Positions 409-13,370 of a stretch of 13,370 nt of DNA are shown here, piece by piece. Origin of the DNA: a virus (lineage: Duplodnaviria; Heunggongvirae; Uroviricota; Caudoviricetes); the IMG/VR virus record IMGVR_UViG_2909309443_000001, one strand, 5' to 3'. Under the pieces are notes generated by a model. The model saw nothing but the letters and a program-made list of their open reading frames with translations. It searched no databases and was not told the DNA's origin. The position numbers were made by a program, and so were the translations under genes. Each line of letters opens with the position of its first letter. The first letter of the stretch is position 1.

Positions 409-426
409 ATAGCTCAAATAAGATAA

Positions 427-450
427 AGCCCCTCGACTGAGGGGCTTTCT
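427..450. terminator. Bidirectional intrinsic terminator between the converging ORF 1..408 and ogr
   Basis: Stem AGCCCCTC (427-434), loop GACT, stem GAGGGGCT (439-446). A T-rich tract follows on both strands (TTCT on +, TTATCTTATTT on -). Confidence 0.6.
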
Positions 451-458
451 GCCTGTAA

Positions 459-677
459 TTACATCCACATAATTTGCTGCCCTGACGGCAACGGGTGCGG
501 CCTTACGGCGTGGACTTCTCCCGGCTTCACGATGTATCTCTGTACCGACTCATACGTGATGAACGTGGCGCTGCAATTCACGTTCTGGCACTGGTGATAA
601 CGCTCTTTTGTCGTGTCAGTGATATAGCGACTTGTACGCGCATGTGCGGCATGCTGGCATAAAGGACAATGAAACAT
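459..677 (-). CDS. ogr: Ogr, zinc-finger late-gene transcriptional activator (Ogr/Delta family), 72 aa
   Basis: Internal ATG at 677-675 gives MFHCPLCQHAAHARTSRYITDTTKERYHQCQNVNCSATFITYESVQRYIVKPGEVHAVRPHPLPSGQQIMWM, which matches my recollection of P2 Ogr including the CxxC...CxxxxC zinc finger. The longer ORF to 740 in the track is probably an upstream extension. Confidence 0.9.
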   Translation of the reverse strand: MFHCPLCQHAAHARTSRYITDTTKERYHQCQNVNCSATFITYESVQRYIVKPGEVHAVRPHPLPSGQQIMWM

Positions 678-758
678 CGCGAGCACCTCTTCCGGTTTTG
701 TTGATGGTGCTATTTTAGTTAATTTATCCTTATAAAACAAACAGATAAAATAAAAACA

Positions 759-1922
759 TCACTCATCATCTTCTGTTTCATACTCCACATCAGAAAGCCT
801 GACCTCAAGCTCCAAGGACGTCGTGAAGCCGCTATTATTCAGAAAATGTGTCACCTTAGTGATTGTCCAGTCCTGCTCGTCTATGACGCGCTTAAAACCT
901 GACACTTTGACCGGCGTTTCCGTGTAAATATCTGCCCGGCCGGTAGCCAGGCTGATGGAGAACTCTGCTACACCCCGTTGCAGTTTATCCCACTTCGCCT
1001 GAGCGGCACGCATGGCCTGTGCTTTCGTGGCATATACCGTGGTCAGGGCAAAAACGTTGTCAGCCTCACCGGCCATGTATTCACCTTCGCGCGCTTCCGG
1101 TACTTTTGGCGCTTTCTTCTGCCTGACCGGTTTCGCTTTCGGGTGCTCCAGTGCGCGCAGGTGTTTCTCTTTCTTTTTGCGTTTCAGTTTTACCTTCTGC
1201 TTTTGCGGCTTCGGGTCTTTGGTGTGAAGCCACTTTGCCGTTACGCCGGTATAGGCTCCACGGTCAGCAATCGCAAAATGGTGGCGGTCGCCGTCGCTGC
1301 GGGTTATGGTGACCTGCGGGATTTTTTTACCGCTGGCCGTCACCCCCTGCCCCGCTTTGAGAAACAACAGTTTTCCCATTTTTACCGAGACCTCACCACC
1401 GTTGCGTTCTGCAAGACGGGTCAGGAATTTCGCATCAGACTCCTGCGACTGGTCGATGTGCGGGATTTTAATTCCTGCCAGTGACGGCGCGACACTGGCT
1501 TCCAGCCTGTTACGGGAGGCTATCGCCTCAACAATCGCACCGAGCGTGGTGTCATGCCAGGAGCCTTCACGGCGGGAATTGAGCGTCCCGCGAAAATCTG
1601 CACTCCGGGCGCGGATGGTAACCACATCCGGTGCGCCCCGGTGTTCAACCTCATCAACGGTGAATTTCCCTTTGCATACCAGGGCAAAACCTTTCCAGCC
1701 GATATACACCGTCAGGACAGCGCCACGAACCGGCAGCCCGACCTGCCCGTCGGCATCGTTCAGTTCAATATCAAGCTGGTCAGCCTCAAAGCCCCGGTTA
1801 TCCGTCAGGGTCATGCTCATCAGACGGTCGCTGATATTGCCGGTAATATCCCTGCTGTCGAGCATCAGCATGTAATCCGGTGTCAGCGTACTGCCTGCAT
1901 CAAATGTCAGCGCATCCAGCAT
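759..1922 (-). CDS. D: Tail protein D (P2 gpD family), 387 aa
   Basis: 387-aa ORF, the same length as P2 gpD. It sits between U and ogr as in P2. Its ATG overlaps the U stop (TAATG). Confidence 0.88.
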   Translation of the reverse strand: MLDALTFDAGSTLTPDYMLMLDSRDITGNISDRLMSMTLTDNRGFEADQLDIELNDADGQVGLPVRGAVLTVYIGWKGFALVCKGKFTVDEVEHRGAPDVVTIRARSADFRGTLNSRREGSWHDTTLGAIVEAIASRNRLEASVAPSLAGIKIPHIDQSQESDAKFLTRLAERNGGEVSVKMGKLLFLKAGQGVTASGKKIPQVTITRSDGDRHHFAIADRGAYTGVTAKWLHTKDPKPQKQKVKLKRKKKEKHLRALEHPKAKPVRQKKAPKVPEAREGEYMAGEADNVFALTTVYATKAQAMRAAQAKWDKLQRGVAEFSISLATGRADIYTETPVKVSGFKRVIDEQDWTITKVTHFLNNSGFTTSLELEVRLSDVEYETEDDE

Positions 1923-2401
1923 TATCCCGCCCCCGTCATACCCGTGAATTTAGTCGCCATACTGCCAGCCTTACCGATGAGCGATTCCGCCTGTTTACCT
2001 ATATCGCCATAAAGCGCGGCCAGTGATTCATCAACGCGGGTAAGTGACAGCGTAAAATCAATTTTCCGGGGTGTGCCGTCTGCAAAGAAAATACTCCCTG
2101 TTTCACTCACCCTGCTGATGACATACATGCCGTAAATCATGCCGGTGCCATCCAGCAACGGCCACGCCCGGCCTTCCTCTGCCATCAGCCTGAGCGTGGT
2201 CATCGTCAGCTTGCCGCCGGTCAGTTCGGGATAAAGCACACCGGCAAGCGTGATGTTTTCCTCACCCACACCGAGAAACTGAAAGGCATCCCGTTTACCG
2301 ATACGGGAATTTGACGGCCAGCGATAATCTGATTCACGCTGCATGGTCTGGTGTGGCAGCGTCTGGCGCATAAAAACAAACATACCTAACGCGAGCATCA
2401 T
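1922..2401 (-). CDS. U: Tail protein U (P2 gpU family), 159 aa
   Basis: 159-aa ORF directly downstream of T and upstream of D, in the P2 order T-U-D. Confidence 0.88.
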   Translation of the reverse strand: MMLALGMFVFMRQTLPHQTMQRESDYRWPSNSRIGKRDAFQFLGVGEENITLAGVLYPELTGGKLTMTTLRLMAEEGRAWPLLDGTGMIYGMYVISRVSETGSIFFADGTPRKIDFTLSLTRVDESLAALYGDIGKQAESLIGKAGSMATKFTGMTGAG

Positions 2402-2415
2402 TGTTCGTCACCTCC

Positions 2416-4863
2416 TTAACCGTCATGCATCATGCTGGCACGGGCGCGCGCACGTTTATCCCGCTCGTATTTTTCGAGTGCATCCTGTAACTGGCGGTCA
2501 AGCTGTGTCCCCGGCGCAGTACCACCCGTAAGGCTGATGTGATATTCGTTTTTACTCTGGTCTACATAAGAGCGGCCAGCCGGTGCCGTGACCGGCTGAT
2601 AAGCCTGATAGCCTGCATAAGAGCTGGTCGCCGGAATATACCCACCGGTGCCATACGTGGCGGCATGAGTCCTTGCGGCGGTCTGGTCAAGTGTGTCTGA
2701 CTCTTTGTTGATAACACCGAGTTTTTCCAGTACCCAGTCAATACCGCTGCGCAGTTTGTTGAACGCATTAAGCGGCAGCATCAGCGCGTCAGCCAGTGCC
2801 TGCCCGAACATGACGCCCGTGTCACGGCAACGGTTCAGGGTGTCCCGGGTGGCTTTGACCGGGGCAATCAGGTTTTTAAACCACTGCCACGCGGCCTGTA
2901 ACTTTTCGCCCAGCCAGTCAAACACCGGCTTAAGTGGCGTGAACAGTTCCCCCACCGGCGCAAATGCCGCTTTCAGCCCTTCCACCACACCGCCAAAGAA
3001 TGCGCTGACAGGCTCCCAATATTTACGGATAAGCAACGCCCCGGCGACAATGGCGGCCACCACGGCCACAACCGGCCAGCTAATCGCCCCGATGGCCGTC
3101 ATAACAGCACTGCCAACCGTCGTGAAGATTGCCCCCATTGCGCCTGCTGCCGCGATGATGGCATTGATGCCAGTGATAACCGGCCAGGCTACGAGGCCAA
3201 TGGCACCGATGACAGCAGTCAGCGCCAGTGCACCACCGACAATGAGGCCGATGGTTGACGCCAGTGATTTGTTTTTCTGTATCCAGCCGTCGAGTTTTAA
3301 CACATACTTTGTGGCCGTCTGCGTGAGCTTACGCAGTGCGCCTTCCTGCTGGTCAAACAGGTCAGTCCCCACCGCCTCATAAGCGGACTGAAACTCCTTA
3401 AAGTCACCGCCGAGGTTGTCCTGCATGATATTTACCAGCTCGGCGGTCTTCCCGTCTGAGGCTTTAAACGCAGCGGTCAGTTTGTCCAGCTTTCCAGTTG
3501 AGGCGGCAGTCATCAGCACGGCGGCGGCTGAGCTGGCCTCCTCCCCGAAAATGGTTTTCATGTATTCAGCCTGCTGGGCAGTACCGAGCCGGTTTTTCTC
3601 AAAACTGGCCTGCATTTCTTTCAGAATGGTAAATACTGGTCGGGTGTTTCCCTTACTGTCTGAGGTTTTCACGCCAAGCTCTTTCAGTGCATCCCATGCT
3701 TTTCCCGTCGGTGCCTGCAGGCGACTTAACACGGCACGGCTTCCCGTCCCCGCCATTGAGCCTGTGATTTTTGCATCATGCAGCGCCCCGACCATTGCGG
3801 CGGTTTCTTCAATGCTGACACCGGCATTTTTTGCCACAGGTGCGGCATAGGTCAGCGCATCGCTCATGCCGTCAAAATCGGCGGCGGTTTTGTTCATCGT
3901 CATGGAGAGAACATCCCCGATATGAGCGACCTTATCGTTTGAAAGCTGAAAGGCGGATTTCATCCCCATCAGCAGGGCGGCGTTTTCTTCCATCGTGCGG
4001 CGGTTCGCCAGCGCCATATTCAGCGTGACCGGCGTTGCCGCCTGAATGGCATCAACATCCCCACCCGCTTTCGCGATGATTATCTGTGCACCGGCCGCAT
4101 CATCCGCCGAGGCGGCGGTATTGTCGCCGAGCTGGCGCGCCTGTTTGCGTAGCGCGGCCATTTCGGCGGAATCTTTTGCCACACCGAGCACGGCCTGCAA
4201 TTCTGAGTTTTTCTGCGCAAACTCATAACCGGGCATCAGCAGCTTAACTCCGGCCATCGTTCCCGCCGCCGCAATCCCCACACCGGCAGCGCCCACCGAG
4301 GCCATATTTCCGGCCAGTTCCTTGCCTGCCTGATAACGCTGTTTTACTGCGTTAAGTTTTGCCTGTTGTGCACTGACACGCGCCAGTGCGTCACGCTGAC
4401 GGTTAAGCTGTGCGGTGGTTTCACTGATACGGTTTTTCAGTCCCTGCTCATTATGTGCAAGATTGCGGGTATTAATTCCCACAGCGGCCAGTTCCCGCTG
4501 CTGGCGTTTAATGGAATCTGTCAGGCGGTTATATTTCGCCTGTAAGTCCTCCGCCGCACGCTTTGCGGATTCCAGCACTTTCGCCTGAGCACGGGTCGGA
4601 CGTTCAGTGTTTTTAAACTGTGTGGCAAGGGCTTCGGCCTCCTGCCGAGCCTTTTCAAGTGCATGACCAGTCACGGCAAGCTGTGCGCTGGTCTTGCGAA
4701 ATCCCTCAATACGGGATGCGTGACCGTTCAGCTCGCGCAGTGATTTTTGTGTTTCCCGGATATCCCCCGACAGCGACTTACTCGCTGTGCGGATGGATTT
4801 AAACGGGCGGGATGCCTGGTCAACAGCCCTGAGCAATACCTGTAATTTTACATTGTTACTCAT
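2416..4863 (-). CDS. T: Tail tape measure protein T (P2 gpT family), 815 aa
   Basis: 815-aa ORF, the same length as P2 gpT. Ala/Gly-rich with coiled-coil N-terminal part and hydrophobic central segments typical of tape measure proteins. The E' remnant stop overlaps its start. Confidence 0.9.
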   Translation of the reverse strand: MSNNVKLQVLLRAVDQASRPFKSIRTASKSLSGDIRETQKSLRELNGHASRIEGFRKTSAQLAVTGHALEKARQEAEALATQFKNTERPTRAQAKVLESAKRAAEDLQAKYNRLTDSIKRQQRELAAVGINTRNLAHNEQGLKNRISETTAQLNRQRDALARVSAQQAKLNAVKQRYQAGKELAGNMASVGAAGVGIAAAGTMAGVKLLMPGYEFAQKNSELQAVLGVAKDSAEMAALRKQARQLGDNTAASADDAAGAQIIIAKAGGDVDAIQAATPVTLNMALANRRTMEENAALLMGMKSAFQLSNDKVAHIGDVLSMTMNKTAADFDGMSDALTYAAPVAKNAGVSIEETAAMVGALHDAKITGSMAGTGSRAVLSRLQAPTGKAWDALKELGVKTSDSKGNTRPVFTILKEMQASFEKNRLGTAQQAEYMKTIFGEEASSAAAVLMTAASTGKLDKLTAAFKASDGKTAELVNIMQDNLGGDFKEFQSAYEAVGTDLFDQQEGALRKLTQTATKYVLKLDGWIQKNKSLASTIGLIVGGALALTAVIGAIGLVAWPVITGINAIIAAAGAMGAIFTTVGSAVMTAIGAISWPVVAVVAAIVAGALLIRKYWEPVSAFFGGVVEGLKAAFAPVGELFTPLKPVFDWLGEKLQAAWQWFKNLIAPVKATRDTLNRCRDTGVMFGQALADALMLPLNAFNKLRSGIDWVLEKLGVINKESDTLDQTAARTHAATYGTGGYIPATSSYAGYQAYQPVTAPAGRSYVDQSKNEYHISLTGGTAPGTQLDRQLQDALEKYERDKRARARASMMHDG

Positions 4864-5135
4864 TCGTGTTTCCGCTTCGCCGGAGCGCCTTTTCGCGCCA
4901 TGTGATGAGTTCGGTCAGGCTCATGGGATACAGTTCTGATGGCGGCCAGTGAAATATCACTGCCACATCCGCCATCAGGTCATCGACCGAGAGATTTTTC
5001 GGGAACGTTACTGCACCGAGTTCGGCGACAAAAAACCGACCACCTTACCGGCCAGCGCCACAAGGTCAGGCAGTTCCAGCGCGGCGACTTCCTGCTCGGT
5101 CAGCATCGGTGCCGTCATGCGCGGCAGCACCTTAA
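4856..5135 (-). pseudogene. E: 5'-truncated remnant of tail chaperone genes E and E+E', with the -1 frameshift module intact
   Basis: My translation of the minus strand gives ...VLPRMTAPMLTEQEVAALELPDLVALAGKVVGFLSPNSVQ* ending at TAA 5010-5008. An in-frame TAG at 5211-5209 lies upstream and there is no ATG for a full-length E. GGT TTT TTG at 5037-5029 carries the T TTT TTG slippery heptamer. The -1 frame is open from 5035 to the TAA at 4858-4856, overlapping the T start. Confidence 0.6.
5029..5035 (-). other. Programmed -1 ribosomal frameshift slippery heptamer T TTT TTG of the E/E' tail chaperone pair
   Basis: Plus strand CAAAAAA at 5029-5035. On the minus strand it is in frame as TTT TTG within the E remnant, and the -1 frame continues open for about 57 codons. 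Confidence 0.6.
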
Positions 5136-5136
5136 G

Positions 5137-5298
5137 CCGGAGAACATCGGGTCGCTGGGCGATATTGAGAAAGTGGCAAAGGTCTTTGTCCGCAATGAGC
5201 TTATCCCGCTACAGGACAGGATTCGGGAAATAAACGGCTGGCTCGGTCAGGAGGTCATCCGCTTTAAAAACTACTCACTGGACACTGACAACGGCTGA
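5137..5298 (+). pseudogene. Q: 3' fragment of portal gene Q (C-terminal ~54 codons)
   Basis: Plus-frame translation ...PENIGSLGDIEKVAKVFVRNELIPLQDRIREINGWLGQEVIRFKNYSLDTDNG* ends at TGA 5296-5298, followed by a strong terminator and then cos. This matches P2, where Q is read toward cos. The upstream part of ORF 4939..5298 in the track is antisense to E/E', so that ORF is a chimera. Confidence 0.5.
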
Positions 5299-5303
5299 AC
5301 ATC

Positions 5304-5325
5304 GCCGCCTGCGGGCGGCTTTTTT
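5304..5325 (+). terminator. Rho-independent terminator of the Q (portal) transcript
   Basis: Perfect GC stem GCCGCC (5304-5309), loop TGCG, stem GGCGGC (5314-5319), then a T6 run (5320-5325). It is oriented for plus-strand transcripts only. Confidence 0.65.
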
Positions 5326-5467
5326 ACACCCCGTCATCACGCCCTCACACGCTCACCACCGCACAAAACACCCCGCAGACACACCAACGCCCCGGCGCAC
5401 AATCTAAACGCCATCACGACGCGCTCAGACGCAGAAAAAATAAAATCAGCACCACCGCCAGCGCGCA

Positions 5468-5486
5468 GTGCTTTCCCCGCCTCGCC
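5468..5486. other. cos site: 19-nt cohesive-end sequence of the P2/186/P4 family
   Basis: Plus strand GTGCTTTCCCCGCCTCGCC is the reverse complement of GGCGAGGCGGGGAAAGCAC, which I recall as the shared 19-nt cohesive end of P2, 186 and P4. Its position between the A-distal cargo gene and the Q 3' end matches P2 genome ends. Confidence 0.7.
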
Positions 5487-5637
5487 CGCCCGCTTCATGG
5501 GTCGGTTTGAATGCAGTTGAATTACAACTACCAAACCAAGCAATCCCTACTATTACGCAGAAAATGCATACTGAAATACCTCGTGCAAATTGATGCAGCT
5601 AAGTATGCATAGGTTTTATGCCTCAACGTATACGTTA

Positions 5638-7470
5638 TCAAACAGAGCCCTGTTCAAAAACAGTATCAAAATATGGTAGGAGAGGATAAGCACACAGAAA
5701 GAAAATCAGGATGCATGCATATGTCGTTGTTTCATCGTAACAAGCATTAGTATATAAATTACCATGTGCTAATTTATGTCTTAAGGTTGCCCCACTCTTT
5801 CTGTTAAAAAGAACATCGATAGTCAAAACAAGATTTTTAGAAAAGATACTTTCCAAATCATCTCTGCATTTATCTAGAAGCTGAGAAATACTTGTTGACT
5901 CCTCTAATCCCTTATCCAAATATCTAGTAGCATCCTTTCCACTAAGCTCATAATAATAACGAACCATACCTTCCATTTGTGGTATTAAAAGATAAGCTGC
6001 ACTGATGTAATCTCCCTGCCATAATTTGTAAAAGCCCAAATTAAAAATCTCCCTAAACTCCGGCTTGACAATTGGACTAGTTGTAACCAATTTAACGAAT
6101 GTTGACAACGTCAAGCCATGTTCTTGAGAAAGTACATAGCGAGCAGGTTCAAAGACACCGTTTACAAAAATCTTATGAGTAATCTCGAAATTTCTTAGAT
6201 ATTGATCAATAACAACATCATCACTCATATCCTTTTTATTATCCAACGGCGGGATTGTATATATCTTACGCCCACTCTCATCATTAATTTCTGTTCCAAC
6301 AAAACTAGAGAATAAACTTTTTTCTGATAATCTTAAAACTTGTTCCCTCATGCTTTCAATATTTTCAATCGGTGTTTCACTCATTAAAACTTTGAATATA
6401 TCGGGCAAAGAACGCCCCGTCAGTTTTTTTTCACTTTCAGCAACCAAGTCACTAATATCAATAGAATGGCTTAAAGTGACATATTCACTCCTTACTTCTT
6501 CTCTCAAATTAGCAAGTTGTTCCTTTAAATCTTCTATCTGTTGGCTATCACCACCGTACTGTCTTAATTCAGAGATAGCTGTTCTTAACCAAGAGATCTT
6601 ACCCATATTATCAGGTCGTTCTGTTGCAACTTTAATAGTAATATTTGCAGATGCCAGTTTACATCTCTTGGCACGTTCATACTCACCATTTTTTTCATAA
6701 ATAACTGCACTTGTCATATAAAGTGATTTTACAGCATCATAATATTTTTTATCTTTATGCTGCTCAGCCATCTTCTCAGCATTTTCCGCATACTGCAGAT
6801 TATACCCATCAAAATCACGCACCATAAACCAAGTCAAATTATTGAAACCTTCAAAGATTAATCTTTCATTTTGAATACTATAAAGAGAATGAATGGCATT
6901 TTTAATCGCCATGTTTCCTTCTGATTTTCTAGGGTAGACCATTTTATTAATGTGCAAAGCCCTAGCAATATAATCACGAGCAAAAATAAAGCAATTTAAA
7001 TCACTTTCATCCATGCTTTCGTTTTTTATTATTGGCTTTTCAATTGCTATATTTAGCATTTCAGCATAGGAATCAATTGCTTTAATTGCCACGTCTTTAT
7101 TTTTCCGATTATTACACCAAACAACATCATATATTCTTGATAACAAAAATGGATTGGTTATTTTTTGAGAAACATATAAAAGACAGTCATTCACCTGCTC
7201 ATCAAAATCTTCAGGCAATATTGATCTTTTATTACCCCAAATCATTTGGGGTTCAAATGATGGAGTGTTGTTAACAACTTGCAAATTGAAACTATATAGC
7301 ATACCAAAAAGAGATGCTAATTTTTTCTCTTTGGGGTTTTCTGATGACTCAGCAATCCCATCCAGATATTTTTTTATTTTATGTGCATGAAATGTAACTG
7401 GTATATGCATAAAAACACTATAATCTAGTGTTTCAAGCTCTTCCCTTGTAAGAACAAAGATATCATTCAT
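5638..7470 (-). CDS. AT-rich cargo protein (~610 aa) at the tin/old position; candidate anti-phage protein with a C-terminal HEPN-like Rx4H motif
   Basis: Long minus ORF whose base composition is far more AT-rich than the flanking phage genes. ATG at 7470-7468 is preceded by AAAGGTGAAAACG (GGTG 6 nt upstream). The track's longer ORF to 7575 starts at a TTG only 15 nt after the A stop. C-terminus carries ...ATLRHKLAHGN... (R-x4-H). No Walker A motif. No recognisable family from sequence alone. Confidence 0.75.
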   Translation of the reverse strand: MNDIFVLTREELETLDYSVFMHIPVTFHAHKIKKYLDGIAESSENPKEKKLASLFGMLYSFNLQVVNNTPSFEPQMIWGNKRSILPEDFDEQVNDCLLYVSQKITNPFLLSRIYDVVWCNNRKNKDVAIKAIDSYAEMLNIAIEKPIIKNESMDESDLNCFIFARDYIARALHINKMVYPRKSEGNMAIKNAIHSLYSIQNERLIFEGFNNLTWFMVRDFDGYNLQYAENAEKMAEQHKDKKYYDAVKSLYMTSAVIYEKNGEYERAKRCKLASANITIKVATERPDNMGKISWLRTAISELRQYGGDSQQIEDLKEQLANLREEVRSEYVTLSHSIDISDLVAESEKKLTGRSLPDIFKVLMSETPIENIESMREQVLRLSEKSLFSSFVGTEINDESGRKIYTIPPLDNKKDMSDDVVIDQYLRNFEITHKIFVNGVFEPARYVLSQEHGLTLSTFVKLVTTSPIVKPEFREIFNLGFYKLWQGDYISAAYLLIPQMEGMVRYYYELSGKDATRYLDKGLEESTSISQLLDKCRDDLESIFSKNLVLTIDVLFNRKSGATLRHKLAHGNLYTNACYDETTTYACILIFFLCAYPLLPYFDTVFEQGSV

Positions 7471-7589
7471 CGTTTTCACCTTTTTCAGTATAAATTTGCA
7501 CACATTATTATTAGCAACATAATTATCAATAGTTAACACATGCAGATAAACAGCAATTTTACTATTATGCAACAAATTAAATCAGATGT
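7471..7589 (-). promoter_or_regulatory. AT-rich intergenic region between A and the cargo gene; putative cargo promoter and RBS
   Basis: About 119 bp of AT-rich DNA between the A stop (TAA, 7592-7590) and the cargo ATG. Contains TATACT and TTGATA hexamers on the minus strand and the GGTG RBS. No exact -35/-10 pair with ideal spacing was confirmed. Confidence 0.3.
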
Positions 7590-9872
7590 TTATTGCTCTG
7601 AATAACAATAAAACCAACTCCACTCATCAGCGACCGGATACGTAAATTTTTTCCCGTTGTAATTTACGATCGCGCCACGCGCCAGCGCCTCAAGCTCCCA
7701 TCGCTGCGGCCTGATACCGTTCTGAGCAAGGTCAACGCGGATACGGGTAATTTGCATTCTTTCCGACCGGGTCAGTCTGGCCGATGGCGCTATTTCATGC
7801 GGTTTTAACGGTCTTCCGTTTCTTTGCTGACGGTTTGGTCTTCTCAGGCCGTGTTTTAATGCGCCCCTGAGCGCCCTCACGACCTCCGGGTCATTCCATT
7901 CGATAACACCGTCATCAACCAGATTAAGCACTGCTGCGGCGTGCTCAGAAGGCGTGGGAGCCGGTAACGAAGTATCACCACCAGTGAGCTTTCCACAGTT
8001 ATTGACAGGACTCCGAGGCGCGGCGATGCCGCTTTTTAAAGTCAAAGGCTCAACGACCGGAACTTTCGGCACAATGCGCCAGTCCGTCGTTCTGGTGATA
8101 TGAATATGACGCGCGCCGAGATGCGGCGCGTAAATGCCGACCACTCTCTCGACTTCTTCCTCGTACTCGTTAACGTCATCCGACGGGCTACGGGCAACCC
8201 TGACAGTCTGACAATCGCGCGGGACATTTGCCCCACCCTGCGCGCTGATATACAACGCAAAATCACCACTGTCTGCAGCAGCGCGAGCAGCCTCGACGCG
8301 TTCGTCAAACTCATCAGCAATGCTGACGCCGCGAGGCAATTTGCGTAGTTCACGGTAAGCCCCCATTGTCGGCAGACCAACCGTTTTAAATTGCGGAATG
8401 CGCCACGTTGACGCCCATGCGGTAACAGCCGCAGCTGTGTCTTTCAGCGGCCTACCGGTATCATTATCGAGCTGACCATCCAGTGCATAGCCGTCGATGT
8501 TTTTTGAGATGTATTTCGCGATATATCCCGCAGCACCGCCCCGGTTAAGGTGTTTTGCCTGAAAACGGTTTCGCGCAGCTCCTCTTTCGTCGCCATCCTC
8601 TTTGAGCGCGTAGCGACGCATGATTTCAATAATCTGGTTACGCTGGCGTGGATTACAAAAAAGCATCATATGCCAGTGCGGCGTTCCGTCGTGGTGTGGC
8701 TCGACGACACGCAAACCGTAGACCTGTAAATCATTATCCTTGAATGCCGTGCGCATCAGGCTCCAGATATGGCAGAGATAACGCTGCGCATCCTTTGGAT
8801 TAAATGCCTCATCGTTCCAGCCGTGATTTAGCTGGACGGTTTTACTTTCGCCTTTTCCGACCTGACGTGTCGGGTGATACTTTGACGGCGCGGTAAGCGT
8901 GATAAACATCCCCACATCACCCTCTGCGGCGGCGTAACGCTCAATACCGGCAATGGTGTTCATCAGCTCCATCCGGCGAATTTCAGGATTAGAAATACTG
9001 CCCATCACCTTACTGATAAGGTCGATGCGTTCGCCGGTTTCCCTGTTTTCAAGGTCACACGATTTAAGAAATTCCAGATTTGCCTGGCGGCGTGCACGCA
9101 CATCACGAATGGCATGTTTACTGGCATAAGGTGAACGGTCTTTATTGACCTCCCCGACAGCAATCAGTAACGCCTCATGCCAGCGCATACGCTGGCCTTT
9201 AAGCTGACTAATCCACCACTCATCGTTAAACAGGCGGGCAATGGCAGAATATGCCTGCCTCGTGGTCATCTGTCCTTTACGGTATTTTTTCCAGTAGAGC
9301 GGGGAAATATTGAAAGCACGTGCAGCGCCAGCAACATGACCATAGAGGTGAGCCTGCGCCTCATCCGTAAACAGCGATTCTTTTTCGCCATGCGCATCCA
9401 CCCAGGCATCGCAGAGTTCCTCATACATAATGAAAAGCTGCGATGAGATACGGGCGGCAAACTTTTTCAGCTCCTTATCATTCATCCCCGGCAGACGCGC
9501 ATAATGGTCACGCTCTGCCAGAAACAGCAACGACGCGTCGGTGTTCATTTCATGGCGCTGATTCACGCGCTCAATGCGCGGCCATAAACGACGCTGAAAA
9601 GTGGATGTGAGGAAATAAAACCCGTGCACCGGGCTTTTATTGCGCCGGATGTAGTCATAGCGTGAAGTAAACAGCGAGCGCAAAAAGTAAGGCAGGCGGT
9701 TAATCGTGGATAAAACACCTTGCACCTGACGCATCTCGTCACGTGTAAGGGGTCTTTCGCGCCCGACGGCCTCGCGTGGCGCGTTCCATGCATAAGCACC
9801 GGTAAACGCCTTACCGGTGCCTGCAGCAAATGCTGACGGAGGGACAAAACGCCCGGAGGCTTTAACGGCCAT
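7590..9872 (-). CDS. A: Replication initiation endonuclease A (P2 gpA, rolling-circle initiator), ~760 aa
   Basis: First ATG at 9872-9870 gives MAVKASGRFVPPSAFAAGTGKAFTGAYAWNAPREAVGRERPLTRDEMRQVQGVL..., a length and N-terminus consistent with P2 A. The track's 774-aa version starts at a TTG. It follows orf83/B as in P2. Confidence 0.88.
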   Translation of the reverse strand: MAVKASGRFVPPSAFAAGTGKAFTGAYAWNAPREAVGRERPLTRDEMRQVQGVLSTINRLPYFLRSLFTSRYDYIRRNKSPVHGFYFLTSTFQRRLWPRIERVNQRHEMNTDASLLFLAERDHYARLPGMNDKELKKFAARISSQLFIMYEELCDAWVDAHGEKESLFTDEAQAHLYGHVAGAARAFNISPLYWKKYRKGQMTTRQAYSAIARLFNDEWWISQLKGQRMRWHEALLIAVGEVNKDRSPYASKHAIRDVRARRQANLEFLKSCDLENRETGERIDLISKVMGSISNPEIRRMELMNTIAGIERYAAAEGDVGMFITLTAPSKYHPTRQVGKGESKTVQLNHGWNDEAFNPKDAQRYLCHIWSLMRTAFKDNDLQVYGLRVVEPHHDGTPHWHMMLFCNPRQRNQIIEIMRRYALKEDGDERGAARNRFQAKHLNRGGAAGYIAKYISKNIDGYALDGQLDNDTGRPLKDTAAAVTAWASTWRIPQFKTVGLPTMGAYRELRKLPRGVSIADEFDERVEAARAAADSGDFALYISAQGGANVPRDCQTVRVARSPSDDVNEYEEEVERVVGIYAPHLGARHIHITRTTDWRIVPKVPVVEPLTLKSGIAAPRSPVNNCGKLTGGDTSLPAPTPSEHAAAVLNLVDDGVIEWNDPEVVRALRGALKHGLRRPNRQQRNGRPLKPHEIAPSARLTRSERMQITRIRVDLAQNGIRPQRWELEALARGAIVNYNGKKFTYPVADEWSWFYCYSEQ

Positions 9873-10137
9873 ATGAGCCAAAAGCCTCTGAACAACGCCT
9901 GCTGAGTTGCTCAACCTGCGCGTTTAAATCAGCAAAAGACTTTGCGCTTCCGGTCAGAATATCGTGATGCATCAGGCCGGAAACAAGCTGGCTTAATTTC
10001 GGGTAATAACCAACCACCGCCAGCCATTCCTGACCGGCGTTTTTACCGCTTTCCGCTCTCTTTTTCTCGTGGAGAATAAACTGGAAGCTGTCACTGGTAA
10101 CGACATAACGTTCGCCAATTTCAATACGAATACTCAT
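9862..10137 (-). CDS. Small hypothetical protein, P2 orf83-like (91 aa)
   Basis: ATG at 10137-10135 overlaps the stop of the upstream ORF (ATGA). Positioned directly upstream of A. Confidence 0.65.
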   Translation of the reverse strand: MSIRIEIGERYVVTSDSFQFILHEKKRAESGKNAGQEWLAVVGYYPKLSQLVSGLMHHDILTGSAKSFADLNAQVEQLSRRCSEAFGSYGR

Positions 10138-10358
10138 GCCGTTCTCCGGTAATGTTTGTTTTTTGCTTCAAAGACTGACTGACAGGAAACACAACGCGTG
10201 GCTGACGGATAAGCCGCACGACGGGCAGCAGGTATTGGCGCGTCACACTCTTCGCAAACCAGCGCAGAAGCACCGCAATGTTTTACCCTTGCCGCGTTAA
10301 TCTGGCGCTCCAGTAATTCAGCCTGTTGTTCCTGAATAAAATCTACGTTGTCCGGCAT
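10134..10358 (-). CDS. TraR/DksA-type C4 zinc-finger protein, P2 orf82-like (74 aa)
   Basis: Four cysteines arranged CxxxxxxxCxxC...CxxC (CGASALVCEEC...CVSC), typical of small phage TraR/DksA-family zinc-finger proteins. ATG at 10358-10356. Confidence 0.65.
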   Translation of the reverse strand: MPDNVDFIQEQQAELLERQINAARVKHCGASALVCEECDAPIPAARRAAYPSATRCVSCQSVFEAKNKHYRRTA

Positions 10359-10360
10359 TA

Positions 10361-10660
10361 TCAGTTCCTTTTATCGTTAAGTTTCCTGGATACATCAGCG
10401 CAATAACTGGCAAGTTCTGTCGTTAATTTTGTCAGTTCATCCACTGAGGAAATTTGCTTGTGGAATACAGCGCGTTTAACAAGTAAATTGACCACATCAG
10501 ACAGGAGGTTTAATTCATTCTGATAAATCGCGATAACAGATTCAGTGATGTCGCGTTTTTCTTTATCAAGACAAAGTTGAATAAGAGACAAATCGCCATT
10601 TTTCATAACGGCGATTTTTAAGGCGTTATTCAGTAATACAACTGAATGAGAACAGGACAT
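10361..10660 (-). CDS. Small hypothetical protein, P2 orf81-like (99 aa from ATG)
   Basis: The track's ORF starts at a TTG (10663). The next codon is ATG (10660-10658) and overlaps the stop of the upstream ORF (ATGA), suggesting translational coupling. Confidence 0.6.
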   Translation of the reverse strand: MSCSHSVVLLNNALKIAVMKNGDLSLIQLCLDKEKRDITESVIAIYQNELNLLSDVVNLLVKRAVFHKQISSVDELTKLTTELASYCADVSRKLNDKRN

Positions 10661-10884
10661 CAAAGTACCTCCCCGCGAGACAATCCGATATTGTGAAATT
10701 TTTCCGACTCCTGACTGAGCAGCTCGACTATCTCCACGCGGGATAACTCCGCCTTTGTGATGTGGCTAATCATGGCGTCAAGATGAGAAGAAAAGCGCGT
10801 CGCCGCGTCGGCCTGTGCTTCGGTTCTGGCCTGTTGCAGCAGTAATGCGTATTTACCGCACTGATTTTCAGAAACTGTATGCAT
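10660..10884 (-). CDS. Small hypothetical protein, P2 orf80-like (74 aa)
   Basis: ATG at 10884-10882 preceded by GGAGAAAGTC (GGAG about 8 nt upstream). Lies between B and the orf81-like gene as in P2. Confidence 0.6.
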
Positions 10885-10947
10885 GACTTTCTCCAGGCAA
10901 AAAGAAGCCCCGCACGATTAAGTGCGTTAAAAACTCTGGTTAATTAC

Positions 10948-11448
10948 TTAATGCAGATATTGCTCTGGTTTTACCGACGTCAGAATTGTCGGTGCATACT
11001 CAAACAGGCTGAATAATTCACGTAATGCACGGAATAAAGCATCACGCCAGTAACATGACTCTTCATTAATTCGCCAGTATGGCTGATTAAATTCTTTTTC
11101 AGTCAATCCGGCATGCATAAATAAAGTACGACGCTGACTGACTGTTAAAAAACTAATATATGCATACTCACTTGCGCCAACCTGACGGCGTTTTGAGAAT
11201 GCCCCACGCAGTTCATCAATTGCACAAACCAGCCGTTCACGTTCGACGTCGTTCATTTCTTCAAAACGCATCGTTGCGTGACGTTGTTTTAACTGCGCAT
11301 GAAAGCAAACTGTTAGCCGTTCGCGCTCCATCATCTGATTATAATAATCACATGTATCCTGCCAGCGAGGGACGGCAAGATGCTTACCAATTATCCGGCG
11401 CATAGCTGCTGGCTGTTTTTCGACGAGATTGAGCGTCATCACTGTCAT
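10948..11448 (-). CDS. B: Replication protein B (P2 gpB, helicase-loader-like), 166 aa
   Basis: 166-aa ORF, the same length as P2 B, beginning MTVMTLNLVEKQPAAMRRIIGKHLAVPRWQD.... Its ATG overlaps the stop of the preceding small ORF (ATGA). Confidence 0.85.
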   Translation of the reverse strand: MTVMTLNLVEKQPAAMRRIIGKHLAVPRWQDTCDYYNQMMERERLTVCFHAQLKQRHATMRFEEMNDVERERLVCAIDELRGAFSKRRQVGASEYAYISFLTVSQRRTLFMHAGLTEKEFNQPYWRINEESCYWRDALFRALRELFSLFEYAPTILTSVKPEQYLH

Positions 11449-11615
11449 TTCCAGACCCTCCGGCTTTTCAGAAAGGTCAGAGCCTTTTTTAACGGACTCT
11501 GTTTTTTGGTGCGGATAATGATTCCCTTGCGACCCTTCCCGTGGGTGATGGTGAAGTCAATCGCCCTGGGGCTTTCGTTACGCAATAACTGAGCAATACA
11601 ACGCGGCTCATTCAT
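11445..11615 (-). CDS. Small hypothetical protein, P2 orf78-like (56 aa from the internal ATG)
   Basis: ATG at 11615-11613 lies just after the cox stop. The track's longer version from 11642 would overlap the cox 3' end. Position matches the small ORF between cox and B in P2. Confidence 0.45.
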   Translation of the reverse strand: MNEPRCIAQLLRNESPRAIDFTITHGKGRKGIIIRTKKQSPLKKALTFLKSRRVWK

Positions 11616-11617
11616 AA

Positions 11618-11890
11618 TCACAACCCCATCCACAAAAGCCATGCATCACGCTGTTCAACCGGTCGGTTATAAAACGCCTCACGTACAGCGCGATTAAACT
11701 CAGGAATGAAAACCCATTTTTCACCGGCACGAGCCTTCGGTTTGCAAGGATCACGCAATTCAATAATTGGTAATTTATTTGCCTTCACCATTTCACTGAC
11801 GGCTGTCTTTGGCTTCCCTAATAAATCAGCAAATTTATCCACATGAACCGCATCAAGCGGATACTGAATCACATAATTTTCAGCGTCCAT
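11618..11890 (-). CDS. cox: Cox, excisionase and repressor of the lysogenic promoter (P2 Cox family), 90 aa
   Basis: ...ARAGEKWVFIPEFNRAVREAFYNRPVEQRDAWLLWMGL resembles the P2 Cox C-terminus as I recall it. ATG at 11890-11888 is preceded by GAGGGT about 9 nt upstream. It is divergent from C. Confidence 0.8.
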   Translation of the reverse strand: MDAENYVIQYPLDAVHVDKFADLLGKPKTAVSEMVKANKLPIIELRDPCKPKARAGEKWVFIPEFNRAVREAFYNRPVEQRDAWLLWMGL

Positions 11891-11905
11891 ATATGGTACC
11901 CTCAT

Positions 11906-12026
11906 AGGATCCAGCCCTTTCTAAACCACTCAAAACCGTTTAGACGCTGGTTTATTCTCAAATCAATGGAACCTATATAGGTTCCAGTTTTGAGGGAATT
12001 TAGTCCCTATATAGGCACCATGTCAA
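11906..12026. promoter_or_regulatory. Divergent early control region between cox and C (Pe/Pc promoters and operators)
   Basis: 121-bp intergenic region between divergent C and cox. Contains a perfect 18-bp palindrome GGAACCTATATAGGTTCC (11968-11985) and a second CCTATATAGG copy (12006-12015), each with a TATA-rich core suitable for -10 elements. Confidence 0.6.
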
Positions 12027-12320
12027 ATGAAATTAAGCGAAAAGATTAAGGCCTTGCGTGAGGCTGAAGGGCTAAGCCAATCAAAATTCTGTGAAATCAT
12101 AGAGTTACCGCTAAGCACACTTAAAAAATATGAAGGAGGAAACTTTGAACCCGGTGGCACAGCTTTGCTAAAAATCACTATGCATCCCACATTCCAAAAA
12201 TATGCTCTATGGCTTATGACAGATAAAACCGCGCCGGACGCAGGACAAATCGCACCGGCTCTCGCGCACATTGGGCCAGAGTCAACAGAGTCCAACCACT
12301 CCGCGAAAAGGATTGGCTAA
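12027..12320 (+). CDS. C: Immunity repressor C (P2 C family), 97 aa
   Basis: Small ORF divergent from cox and upstream of int, beginning MKLSEKIKALREAEGLSQSKFCEIIELPLSTLKKYEGG..., consistent with a small HTH repressor. The ...GQIAPALAH... segment resembles P2 C as I recall it. Confidence 0.8.
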   Translation: MKLSEKIKALREAEGLSQSKFCEIIELPLSTLKKYEGGNFEPGGTALLKITMHPTFQKYALWLMTDKTAPDAGQIAPALAHIGPESTESNHSAKRIG

Positions 12321-12389
12321 CTCTATATAAAGATTACATTTTCACCATTTGCTACCAAGATGGTGAATACAGCGCCGGAGGGCTTTCTT

Positions 12390-13370
12390 ATGGCAATTAA
12401 GAAGCTCGATGATGGTCGCTATGAAGTGGACATTAGACCTCGCGGTCGCGACGGAAAACGCATCCGCAGGAAATTCGAAAGAAAAGCTGAAGCACTAGCA
12501 TTTGAGCGATACACAATCGCCAATGCCAGTCAGAAAGAATGGGGAGGCCAGCGAGCAGACCGCCGGACTTTGAGTGAGTTGCTGGACATCTGGTGGAAAT
12601 ATCACGGGCAAAACCACGAGCATGGAACAAAAGAGTTTAATCATCTACTCAAAACCATCAGCGGCATAGGTGATATACCAGTGAGCAGGATGAGCAAAAG
12701 GGCTTTGATGGATTATCGTTCCATGCGACTACGTGATGGTATCAGTGCCGCAACGATAAACCGTGACATGTACCGATTATCCGGCATGTTCACAAAATTA
12801 ATTCAATTGGATGAATTTTCCGGGCAACACCCAATTCACGGACTGCCACCACTGGCGGAGGCCAACCCTGAAATGACGTTCCTGGAAAAAGCAGAAATCG
12901 AAAAACTGTTAAATGTTTTGGCTGGTGATGACTTACTTGTCGCGCTTTTATGTCTGAGCACTGGAGGAAGATGGACGGAAGTTGCCACGCTAAAACCAGC
13001 ACAGATTACAAATTGCAGGGTTACCTTCCTGAAAACCAAAAACGGTAAAAAGCGAACCGTGCCGATTTCTGAGGAACTGGAGAAAAAAGTTAAAGAGGAG
13101 GCCAGCGCCAAATTATTCAAAGTTGATTATGAGAAATTTTGCGGGATTTTACGCAGAGTGAAACCTGATATACCACCCAATCAGGCAACCCACATCCTGC
13201 GGCATACATTCGCAAGCCATTTCATGATGAATGGGGGCAATATAATCGCACTGCAACAGATTCTGGGACATGCGAGCATTCAGCAGACGATGGCCTATGC
13301 GCACCTTGCGCCTGACTATCTGCAAAATGCCGTCGCTCTGAATCCACTAAAGGGCGGAGTGACGTTATAA
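12390..13370 (+). CDS. int: Tyrosine integrase (P2 Int family), 326 aa from the second ATG
   Basis: MAIKKLDDGRYEVDIRPRGRDGKRIRRKF... matches the P2 integrase N-terminus as I recall it. C-terminal region has the HxLRHT...Y catalytic pattern (ATHILRHTFASHF...MAYAHLAP). GGAGGG lies 8 nt upstream of ATG 12390. An alternative ATG is at 12360. Stop TAA is at 13368-13370, the window end. Confidence 0.9.
   Translation: MAIKKLDDGRYEVDIRPRGRDGKRIRRKFERKAEALAFERYTIANASQKEWGGQRADRRTLSELLDIWWKYHGQNHEHGTKEFNHLLKTISGIGDIPVSRMSKRALMDYRSMRLRDGISAATINRDMYRLSGMFTKLIQLDEFSGQHPIHGLPPLAEANPEMTFLEKAEIEKLLNVLAGDDLLVALLCLSTGGRWTEVATLKPAQITNCRVTFLKTKNGKKRTVPISEELEKKVKEEASAKLFKVDYEKFCGILRRVKPDIPPNQATHILRHTFASHFMMNGGNIIALQQILGHASIQQTMAYAHLAPDYLQNAVALNPLKGGVTL

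Follow-up and report, generated by a model that had tools for sequence, protein, structure and literature searches.

The 13,370-nucleotide window analysed here contains the gpA-cos region of a P2-like prophage. Between its replication gene A and its cos site lies a single uninterrupted minus-strand reading frame (5638-7575), which the initial annotation regarded as a possible, undescribed single-gene defence protein with a C-terminal HEPN-like motif. The locus raises the question of what this protein is, and whether it is likely to act against competing phages.

A solo gene of foreign composition in the gpA-cos slot

Gene A and cos bound the reading frame on either side (Table 1), confirming its placement in the gpA-cos (tin/old) hotspot of P2, and P2-family homology picks up again at approximately position 5522, past the gene. 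The GC content of the gene is 0.333 (GC3, 0.257), whereas genes A and T have values of 0.531 and 0.564, respectively, which bears out the AT-rich, foreign composition described for it at the outset. The gene is carried by 55 of the 2156 genomes that match a query made of the slot and its flanks, and by 55 of 5426 complete E. coli genomes. In its position between gpA and cos, in a slot of variable content, and with a foreign GC content, it has the attributes of hotspot cargo. Comparison of the slot across related prophages, as the initial annotation had proposed, placed homologues of 31-66% identity in the same gpA-gpQ slot in several genera (prophages of Klebsiella, Kosakonia and Enterobacter, as well as P2-EC46), and the family recurs in the equivalent slot of P2-like and 186-like prophages. 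In Enterobacter, the homologue is followed by a DUF2971 gene. By tblastn, family matches also were found on bacterial and haloarchaeal plasmids, and distant members on plasmids adjoin methyltransferase/helicase or restriction genes. Within the window, we found no partner ORF or meaningful repeat around the gene, and an Rfam search of the window returned no RNA family; this is a solo cargo gene. The prophage carrying it is defective after the loss of some 18 kb of structural genes. The gene persists in this prophage remnant.

Table 1. Features of the gpA-cos slot and of the 610-residue protein encoded in it
Feature	Position	Strand	Basis
P2 replication gene A, proximal hotspot boundary	7590..9914	-	ORF; replication endonuclease / Phage_GPA annotation in matching records
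AT-rich intergenic region upstream of the 610-aa gene, presumed own promoter	7471..7589	-	RBS and consensus scan
CDS, 610-aa DUF7380/DUF4209 protein, stop codon included	5638..7470	-	ORF list and translation; PGAP; full-length matches to PHROG 5183 and PADLOC PDC-S39
N-terminal DUF7380 domain, residues 4-184	6919..7461	-	Pfam PF24098
Central all-helical repeat region, TPR/SNAP/Rap-like, about residues 185-385	6316..6918	-	Boundaries approximate
C-terminal HEPN-like domain, about residues 455-606; DUF4209 match at 524-590	5653..6108	-	Pfam PF13910; topology
E500-x3-R504 (E500-G-M-V-R504), Ex3[KR] acidic motif of HEPN helix 2	5959..5973	-	Invariance in 54 homologues
R564-H565-K-L-A-H569, HEPN Rx4H motif, polar H after R	5764..5781	-	Invariance in 54 homologues
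P2 cos cohesive-end sequence, distal hotspot boundary	5468..5486	-	Exact match to GGCGAGGCGGGGAAAGCAC

The reading frame allows two starts, ATG at 7470 and TTG at 7575, an ambiguity that had been left standing. A GGTGA Shine-Dalgarno sequence (7480-7476) precedes the ATG, the NCBI PGAP annotation of NZ_CP092233 gives this 610-aa product as well, and most of 13 aligned homologues begin at the residue equivalent to ATG 7470, with a longer N-terminal extension in one only. Because the ribosome-binding site, the PGAP call and the homologue starts agree, the real start is ATG 7470, giving a protein of 610 residues, and TTG 7575 was rejected. The identical protein is carried on chromosome CP024266.1. 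A consensus scan of the upstream stretch found two sigma-70-like sites (7592-7564 and 7536-7507), which are matches to the consensus only and no evidence of function; the same stretch is the "native promoter" cloned in pFR103 by Rousset et al., a construct discussed below.

Domain architecture and family assignment

Pfam analysis of the protein revealed an N-terminal DUF7380 domain (PF24098), which scores 134.8 bits where the cutoff is 27 (E 3.7e-39) and aligns to positions 3-174 of the 177-position profile. RefSeq names the protein after it ("DUF7380 domain-containing protein"), and all 54 sampled family members match it. Within this domain R82, D88, R112, D115, W118 and R170 are near-invariant, being conserved in at least 90% of the 54 members, and they appear to make up a conserved charged patch. 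At the other end of the protein, the match to DUF4209 (PF13910) falls just under the cutoff of 22.3 bits, at 20.0 bits for the full-length protein and 21.8 bits for the isolated domain. Because DUF4209 is matched by 50 of 54 family members (best E, 9.4e-13) and by 25 of 26 C-terminal domains (best E, 1.4e-10) despite the sub-cutoff score of the protein itself, membership would hold at the family level, by transitive homology. Some copies are annotated as DUF4209 in GenBank or RefSeq, and Pfam searches with only the C-terminal domain of 26 sequences (E <= 10) returned DUF4209 alone and no further HEPN family.

The protein also matched PHROG 5183 over its full length. Of the 5027 models in the PADLOC library, those of the candidate system PDC-S39 alone were returned (PDLC05011, E 8.9e-85, profile positions 44-583 of 595; PDLC05012, E 8.3e-84, positions 8-599 of 615). 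The earlier statement that the protein could not be assigned to a named family does not stand: it belongs to DUF7380 and DUF4209 (C6orf70-type HEPN), PHROG 5183 and PDC-S39. An NCBIfam search gave no match, and profile searches of the PDB, with the full-length protein or with the C-terminal domain, yielded no real relative. The family is large, with 3374 cluster representatives (50% identity clusters) at E <= 1e-3, and among the 150 matches listed most proteins are 600 to 630 aa long. A second, word-index homologue search that started from the 54-sequence alignment recovered the 21 close relatives already found, and a search for related loci with the alignment of closer homologues turned up one locus.

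The slot that the gene shares with old and tin suggests that it could belong to a named, validated system (Old, Tin, AbiD/F, AbiJ, PD-T7-4 or another) that had been missed, as does the weak similarity of DUF4209 proteins to AbiJ reported in the DefensePredictor supplement (HHblits probability of 62-73%, coverage of about 20%). P2 Old and Tin, the canonical occupants of the A-cos slot, are prophage-expressed exclusion genes, as the gene studied here may be. P2 Old, however, is an ATPase-TOPRIM nuclease of a family with an N-terminal ABC-type ATPase, which bears Walker A, and a C-terminal TOPRIM domain, whereas the 610-aa protein lacks a Walker A motif in both its strict and its relaxed form and gave no TOPRIM, AAA, Old or Tin HMM match. 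Identity with Old or Tin was rejected on these grounds, and the initial view that the protein is not Old was correct. Pfam likewise returned no Abi_2 or AbiJ match, and PDC-S39 remained the only PADLOC system recovered. Within what the searched HMM libraries can detect, membership in a known Abi family or other named system was rejected, and we regard it as very improbable.

Conserved C-terminal motifs and predicted fold

The sequence RHKLAH is the sole R[NHQD]xxxH match in the protein (residues 564 to 569). The bare pattern is weak, occurring at least once in 7.7% of shuffled sequences. An alignment of 54 diverse homologues (21-64% identity) revealed that the only invariant columns are E500, R504, G560, R564, H569 and G570. 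Because R564 and H569 are unchanged in all 54 homologues, RHKLAH, on this comparison, is not a chance match. E500 and R504 also are invariant in the 26-sequence alignment of the C-terminal domain. The signatures of HEPN domains are an Rx4-6H motif whose arginine is directly followed by a polar residue (N/D/H) and, upstream, a conserved acidic residue, typically within Ex3[KR], in helix 2 (Anantharaman et al. 2013, PMC3710099). Here, H565 directly follows R564, and E500 and R504 lie within a predicted helix (498-509). The HEPN motif first recognized near the C terminus is, in short, a family-invariant Rx4H paired with an invariant upstream Ex3R. HEPN domains fold as a four-helix up-down bundle in which an insert separates helices 2 and 3 and the Rx4-6H motif closes helix 3. 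The AF2 model (pLDDT 92.9) consists of helices throughout and resembles TPR repeats in its centre, and the C-terminal domain has a predicted helix/insert/helix topology compatible with HEPN. The gene probably encodes an RNA-cutting protein of the HEPN type.

The same features bear on whether the reading frame is a chance ORF or a decaying pseudogene in AT-rich junk DNA, as its foreign composition and defective host prophage might suggest. This is refuted by a 1.8-kb frame with 99.5-99.8% nucleotide identity across 55 complete E. coli genomes, by full-length homologues down to 21% identity in which the motifs are invariant, and by a fold predicted with high confidence; we give it almost no credence.

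Anantharaman et al. assigned DUF4209, the C6orf70 family, to the HEPN superfamily (PMC3710099), where it is explicitly listed as "fused to TPR" and as occurring "in R-M related operons." C6orf70 (ERMARD)/DUF4209 proteins and the 610-aa protein share the C-terminal Rx4H, the TPR-like fusion and prokaryotic members near restriction-modification genes. The eukaryotic C6orf70/ERMARD relatives claimed by Anantharaman et al. are described as spanning the ER membrane once, and a role in RNA decay has been proposed for them (PMC3710099), whereas the present protein is phage borne and bacterial, has an additional N-terminal DUF7380 domain, and scores about 2 bits below the DUF4209 cutoff. Our literature searches on DUF7380, on ERMARD together with HEPN, and on P2-EC46 found nothing.

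A defensive protein might instead use a noncatalytic HEPN-like module for binding or dimerisation; its effector or sensor chemistry would then lie in DUF7380, with the R82/D88/R112/D115/W118/R170 cluster as the functional site. The near-invariance of those residues in diverse members fits this notion, as do the lack of an assigned function for DUF7380 in Pfam and the existence of HEPN domains that serve in substrate binding (PMC3710099). However, HEPN domains without catalysis usually lose the Rx4-6H motif (PMC3710099), and in this family both the Rx4H and the Ex3R pairs are strictly invariant. The strict invariance of R564, H569, E500 and R504 therefore points to catalysis at the HEPN site, and a noncatalytic module seems improbable.

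Earlier descriptions and a possible role in defence

The suggestion that the gene may be undescribed has to be withdrawn. Rousset et al. (2022) listed it as P2-hotspot system 13 ("DUF4209"), ranking 13th among the cargo with 193 occurrences, and cloned the E. coli S88 copy with its native promoter as pFR103 ("Putative HEPN"). Their Table S5B sequence begins identically to the 610-aa protein, and in the pFR103 protein 395 of the first 399 residues, the part compared, are identical (99%), with four substitutions. System 13 has the same place after gpA and the same upstream region; unlike that entry, the copy in the window lies in a prophage without its approximately 18 kb of structural genes. 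pFR103 appears solely under "additional tested systems," outside the validated ones (Rousset et al. 2022), from which we infer that no protection was reported against the eight-phage panel. Eight phages on one host make for a narrow test of pFR103.

Two computational sources had also flagged the family. PDC-S39 is, like the gene itself, a single-gene candidate, and its HMMs match at near full length; since PADLOC PDC systems are computational candidates and PDC-S39 has no validated phenotype, membership is silent on function. DefensePredictor (2026) scores E. coli DUF4209 proteins as predicted defence genes. The literature and PADLOC already cover the gene, its predicted HEPN character and its standing as a defence candidate.

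Several validated solo HEPN proteins offer a precedent for the architecture. HEC-08 combines a DUF3644 HEPN with zinc-finger-like domains, DS-11 combines CBS with HEPN, and DS-38 and PD-T7-4 combine HEPN with a zinc finger; mutation of the HEPN catalytic residues of HEC-08 and DS-11 abolished defence. Each joins, in one polypeptide, a HEPN RNase and a separate sensor or regulatory domain, as the 610-aa protein appears to do. They differ from it in their HEPN families and partner domains, with no detectable similarity, and in having a validated defence phenotype, whereas the 610-aa protein is a candidate only.

We slightly favour (probability of roughly 0.55) the reading that the gene encodes a solo, prophage-expressed, sensor-coupled HEPN RNase that would act by abortive infection. 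The gene would be intact, horizontally acquired cargo in the variable gpA-cos slot of a now-defective P2-like prophage, transcribed in the lysogen from its own promoter. Of the three parts of the protein, the N-terminal DUF7380 domain and the TPR/SNAP-like helical repeat would detect an infection cue or keep the enzyme inactive, and the C-terminal DUF4209 HEPN domain, with its Ex3R and Rx4H motifs, would be the effector. Once activated, the HEPN domains, possibly as a dimer, would act as a metal-independent RNase on host and/or phage RNA; cleavage would arrest translation and abort infection by the competing phage. Counting against such a role are the missing report of protection for pFR103, the unvalidated status of PDC-S39 and the sub-cutoff DUF4209 score.

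A nondefensive reading would make the gene a moron, an accessory gene of the prophage, encoding for instance a stress-linked, RNA-processing or regulatory HEPN enzyme of benefit to host or prophage, comparable to the RNA quality control proposed for eukaryotic C6orf70. Such a role would fit a 99%-identical pFR103 without reported defence, the predicted nondefence roles of the C6orf70 family in eukaryotes (PMC3710099), and the retention of the gene in a remnant that has lost its structural genes, which suits any host-beneficial function. However, validated defence systems are strongly over-represented in the gpA-cos slot, distant members adjoin restriction-modification genes, two independent predictors (the PADLOC embedding and DefensePredictor) flagged the family, and the pFR103 panel was narrow. 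We consider an accessory role unlikely, while giving it some weight.

Returning to the abortive-infection RNase, an extension to the whole family is conceivable, although we put it at somewhat less than even odds: the family may be an unrecognized single-protein immune sensor-effector in which DUF7380 and the TPR-like region read a phage cue that was missing from the 2022 panel (for example, from temperate or P2/P4-type competitors) and the DUF4209 HEPN RNase then stops translation.

To the earlier descriptions, the present analysis adds the start codon, the invariance of Ex3R and Rx4H, a high-confidence three-module model, the conserved DUF7380 charged patch, and the persistence of the gene in a prophage remnant; it otherwise adds little, and the obvious first experiment was carried out earlier, with no positive outcome reported. 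The gene nevertheless is among the commoner cargo of the P2 hotspot and belongs to a very large family without a demonstrated function, for which an experimental phenotype would be useful. If the family does act as an immune sensor-effector, this would be the first function for DUF4209, DUF7380 and PDC-S39, and a family of eukaryotic ER proteins would thereby be tied to an immune ancestor in prokaryotes.

The candidate gene and its prophage

Sequence checks recovered the AT-rich ORF, the gpA-cos slot, and the RHKLAH motif described in the initial annotation (see table). That annotation left the start open between ATG 7470 and TTG 7575. The functional start is ATG 7470, giving a 610-aa protein, because GGTGA precedes it, PGAP (NCBI) gives the identical 610-aa product in E. 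coli M37H, and most of the 13 aligned homologs begin at the equivalent residue; just one has a longer N-terminal extension. The GC content of the gene is 33.3% (GC3, 25.7%), compared with 53.1% and 56.4% for genes A and T, respectively, and P2-family phage homology resumes at ~5522. As the initial annotation had stated, a motif scan of the protein found no Walker A motif; on this ground and from the Pfam and PADLOC results, assignment to Old, Tin, or a named Abi family was rejected.

The early operon of P2, which includes gene A, is under repression in lysogens, so a gene that the prophage expresses must have a promoter of its own. The AT-rich spacer preceding the candidate gene (119 nt) contains two sigma-70-like sites, which are consensus matches only. 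No partner ORF was found between the stop codon and cos, nor were repeats or Rfam families found around the gene in the window; it is a solo gene. A GC-rich 68-aa ORF that overlaps cos and spans the cohesive-end sequence is probably spurious; phage record ON470601 lists its counterpart (locus positions 5938-6135) as a hypothetical protein.

The P2-like prophage itself is a defective deletion derivative. Its alignment to phage vB_EcoM-569R9 falls into two separated matches, indicating that ~18 kb is missing. The lost segment starts within portal gene Q, most of which is gone, takes in the genes from P to FII (terminase, capsid, lysis, baseplate, tail-fiber, sheath, and tube genes), and ends with the 5' part of E. 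The remnant keeps the early region int-C-cox-B-A, the candidate gene, cos, a 165-nt tail of Q, and E'-T-U-D-ogr. In the source chromosome (CP024266.1), where it sits between cpxP and a cation-efflux gene, the prophage has this same layout; searches of 5426 complete RefSeq E. coli genomes and of PLSDB plasmids did not find the junction. Gene E survives as its 3' part, which has, just before its stop codon, a run that we take to resemble the P2 E/E+E' frameshift site; with the beginning of E lost, the remnant cannot produce the tail-chaperone pair.

Features of the candidate gene and its surroundings in the window
Feature	Window position	Strand	Residues	Remark
Uninterrupted ORF	5638-7575	-		ORF list and translation
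Candidate gene	5638-7470	-	1-610	From ATG
GGTGA	7480-7476	-		
DUF7380 domain	6919-7461	-	4-184	Pfam, E 3.7e-39
DUF4209 match			524-590	Pfam, 20 bits, below cutoff of 22.3
RHKLAH	5781-5764	-	564-569	Only R[NHQD]xxxH in the protein
P2 replication gene A	7590-9914			Flanks candidate gene on one side
P2 cos, GGCGAGGCGGGGAAAGCAC	5486-5468			Flanks it on the other side
68-aa TTG ORF	5337-5543	-		Probably spurious
119-aa ORF	4939-5298	+		Fusion artifact across junction
GGTTTTTTG	4986-5019	-		3' part of gene E
P2-like prophage	418-13370			
Match to vB_EcoM-569R9 9769-1536	5134-13370			
Match to vB_EcoM-569R9 31531-27747	1343-5135			
Deletion junction	5134/5135			

Family assignment and the HEPN signature

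The initial annotation could not place the protein in a named family, but profile searches can. In addition to the Pfam matches, PADLOC candidate PDC-S39 matched near full length (E 8.9e-85) and PHROGs family 5183, of unknown function, matched over the full length; an NCBIfam search gave no match. Searched exhaustively with HMMER, 1.84 billion cluster representatives yielded 3374 relatives at E <= 1e-3 (642 at E <= 1e-30), and most of the 150 listed align end to end and are 600 to 630 aa long. In a diverse sample of 54 members (21 to 64% identity), DUF7380 was matched by all 54 and DUF4209 by 50 (best E, 9.4e-13), so this architecture defines the family and the sub-threshold DUF4209 score of the window protein reflects divergence only. 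By these profiles the protein is assigned to DUF7380 and PDC-S39 and, at the family level, to DUF4209 (C6orf70-type HEPN).

As a bare pattern, R[NHQD]xxxH arises in 7.7% of shuffled sequences, and the significance of RHKLAH therefore rests on conservation. Across the 54 homologs, the only strictly invariant columns in the whole protein are E500, R504, G560, R564, H569, and G570, which were obtained again when the C-terminal domain was aligned alone. In the HEPN signature, helix 3 ends in Rx4-6H, whose R is followed by a polar residue (N, D, or H); helix 2 carries another conserved residue, which is acidic and usually part of Ex3[KR]; and a variable insert separates the two helices (Anantharaman et al. 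2013, PMC3710099). The same survey counts among HEPN families the C6orf70 family, which "overlaps with DUF4209 (PF13910)," has a conserved Rx4-6H, is "fused to TPR," is seen more often in bacteria than in eukaryotes, and is found in R-M-related operons. E500/R504 and R564/H569 form exactly E-x3-R and R-H-x3-H, and the aligned sequences thus agree with both motifs of that published definition.

An AlphaFold2 model built with the 54-member alignment (pLDDT 92.9, pTM 0.83) predicts an alpha/beta module at the N terminus, a long series of paired helices, a short beta element (~residues 393 to 406), and a helical domain at the C terminus. In the model, E500/R504 lie within helix 498-509, an insert with a beta-hairpin occupies 510-544, and R564-H569 end a kinked helix (545-568) that is followed by a long final helix (580-606), a topology compatible with the HEPN definition. 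In a whole-chain structure search, TPR matches swamped the results. Together, the two motif criteria and the compatible topology leave the HEPN assignment well supported as motif and as family, bearing out the "HEPN-like motif" of the initial annotation, and from them we infer a HEPN fold and RNase activity for the C-terminal domain.

In the DUF7380 domain, R82, D88, R112, D115, W118, and R170 are kept in at least 90% of the 54 homologs. This charged and aromatic set could line a pocket that binds a ligand or trigger, act as a latch between domains, or constitute a second active site. Its conservation favors a reading in which the key chemistry resides in the DUF7380 domain, which we consider improbable.

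Distribution in the P2 hotspot and beyond

A query spanning the slot and its flanks matched 2156 of 5426 complete E. coli genomes. Only 55 of these hold the DUF7380/DUF4209 cargo, at 99.5 to 99.8% identity, on which ground a pseudogene reading was rejected. One sequenced phage, vB_EcoM-569R9, carries the gene, annotated "DUF4209 domain-containing protein." Relatives occupy the gpA-gpQ slot in Klebsiella P2-like prophages (64% identity), in 186-like prophages of Kosakonia and a metagenome (53 to 54%), in a degraded Enterobacter P2-like prophage (31%), and in P2-EC46 from ECOR46, whose slot-sized record (AM157366.1, 2192 bp) is occupied by a gene of this type (32.5%). A second "DUF4209" system of different sequence (number 55, 76 occurrences) is listed by Rousset et al. 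(2022, PMC9122126, Table S5B); with the P2-EC46 gene, this indicates that at least two divergent lineages circulate in the P2 hotspot.

In Enterobacter sp. ECC-219 (NZ_CP143680.1), a DUF2971 gene for 303 aa (locus positions 9843-10754) follows the homolog (locus positions 7989-9836) after 7 nt and has the same orientation. It could be a partner in the Enterobacter branch; the window contains no DUF2971 gene. More distant members are solo plasmid genes in Cedecea, Aeromonas, Klebsiella, and the archaeon Natrinema; a few genes downstream of the Aeromonas copy come a methyltransferase and a DEAD-box helicase, and a restriction endonuclease lies near the Natrinema copy. This distribution is as expected for a mobile, self-contained module of the defense-island type.

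Published tests and proposed function

The suggestion that the protein might be undescribed does not hold. P2-hotspot system 13 of Rousset et al. (PMC9122126, Supplementary Table S5B; "DUF4209," 193 occurrences) opens MNDIFVLTREELETLDYSVFMHIP and is the window protein. The same study cloned eight additional P2 systems, three of them active; plasmid pFR103 (Table S2B: "Putative HEPN," P2, one gene, from E. coli S88) includes the same upstream region, and its protein is identical at 395 of 399 residues over the part shown. Its Methods give Table S2A as validated systems and Table S2B as "additional tested systems." The gene was thus carried on a low-copy vector and tested in MG1655 with a set of eight phages, with no protection reported, essentially the cloning and plaquing experiment that the initial annotation had proposed. 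PADLOC PDC entries are unvalidated candidates, and PDC-S39 appears in the literature as a detected candidate only. DefensePredictor (PMC13092281) scored other DUF4209 proteins from E. coli as predicted novel defense genes (log-odds 4.3 to 8.1), with weak HHblits similarity to AbiJ (probability 62 to 73%); its tested-unit Table S6 contains neither the scored proteins WP_000710784, WP_021514655, and WP_033814625 nor the terms DUF4209 and DUF7380. Searches on DUF7380, ERMARD with HEPN, and P2-EC46 found no further paper.

The best-supported model, to which we give a probability of roughly 0.55, is a sensor and an effector joined in one polypeptide. Its DUF7380 and TPR-like regions would sense an infection cue or hold the enzyme autoinhibited, and the HEPN domain at the C terminus, probably working as a dimer, would cut RNA and so abort infection. 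HEPN RNases are typically dimeric (PMC13092281). The proposed mode of action is that of HEC-08 and DS-11, validated solo HEPN defense proteins in which HEPN-motif mutations abolish defense, but the window protein has no detectable sequence similarity to them. That no protection was reported genuinely counts against the model, yet this evidence is narrow, covering a single host, a single expression level, and eight phages. The main rival, an RNA-directed non-defense function kept for its benefit to host or prophage, appears unlikely, if less so than chemistry centered on DUF7380.

Publications already cover the gene, the prediction that it encodes a HEPN protein, and its status as a candidate, and the cloning test is essentially done. 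The point that remains is that a family without a demonstrated function is very large and possibly has eukaryotic relatives.
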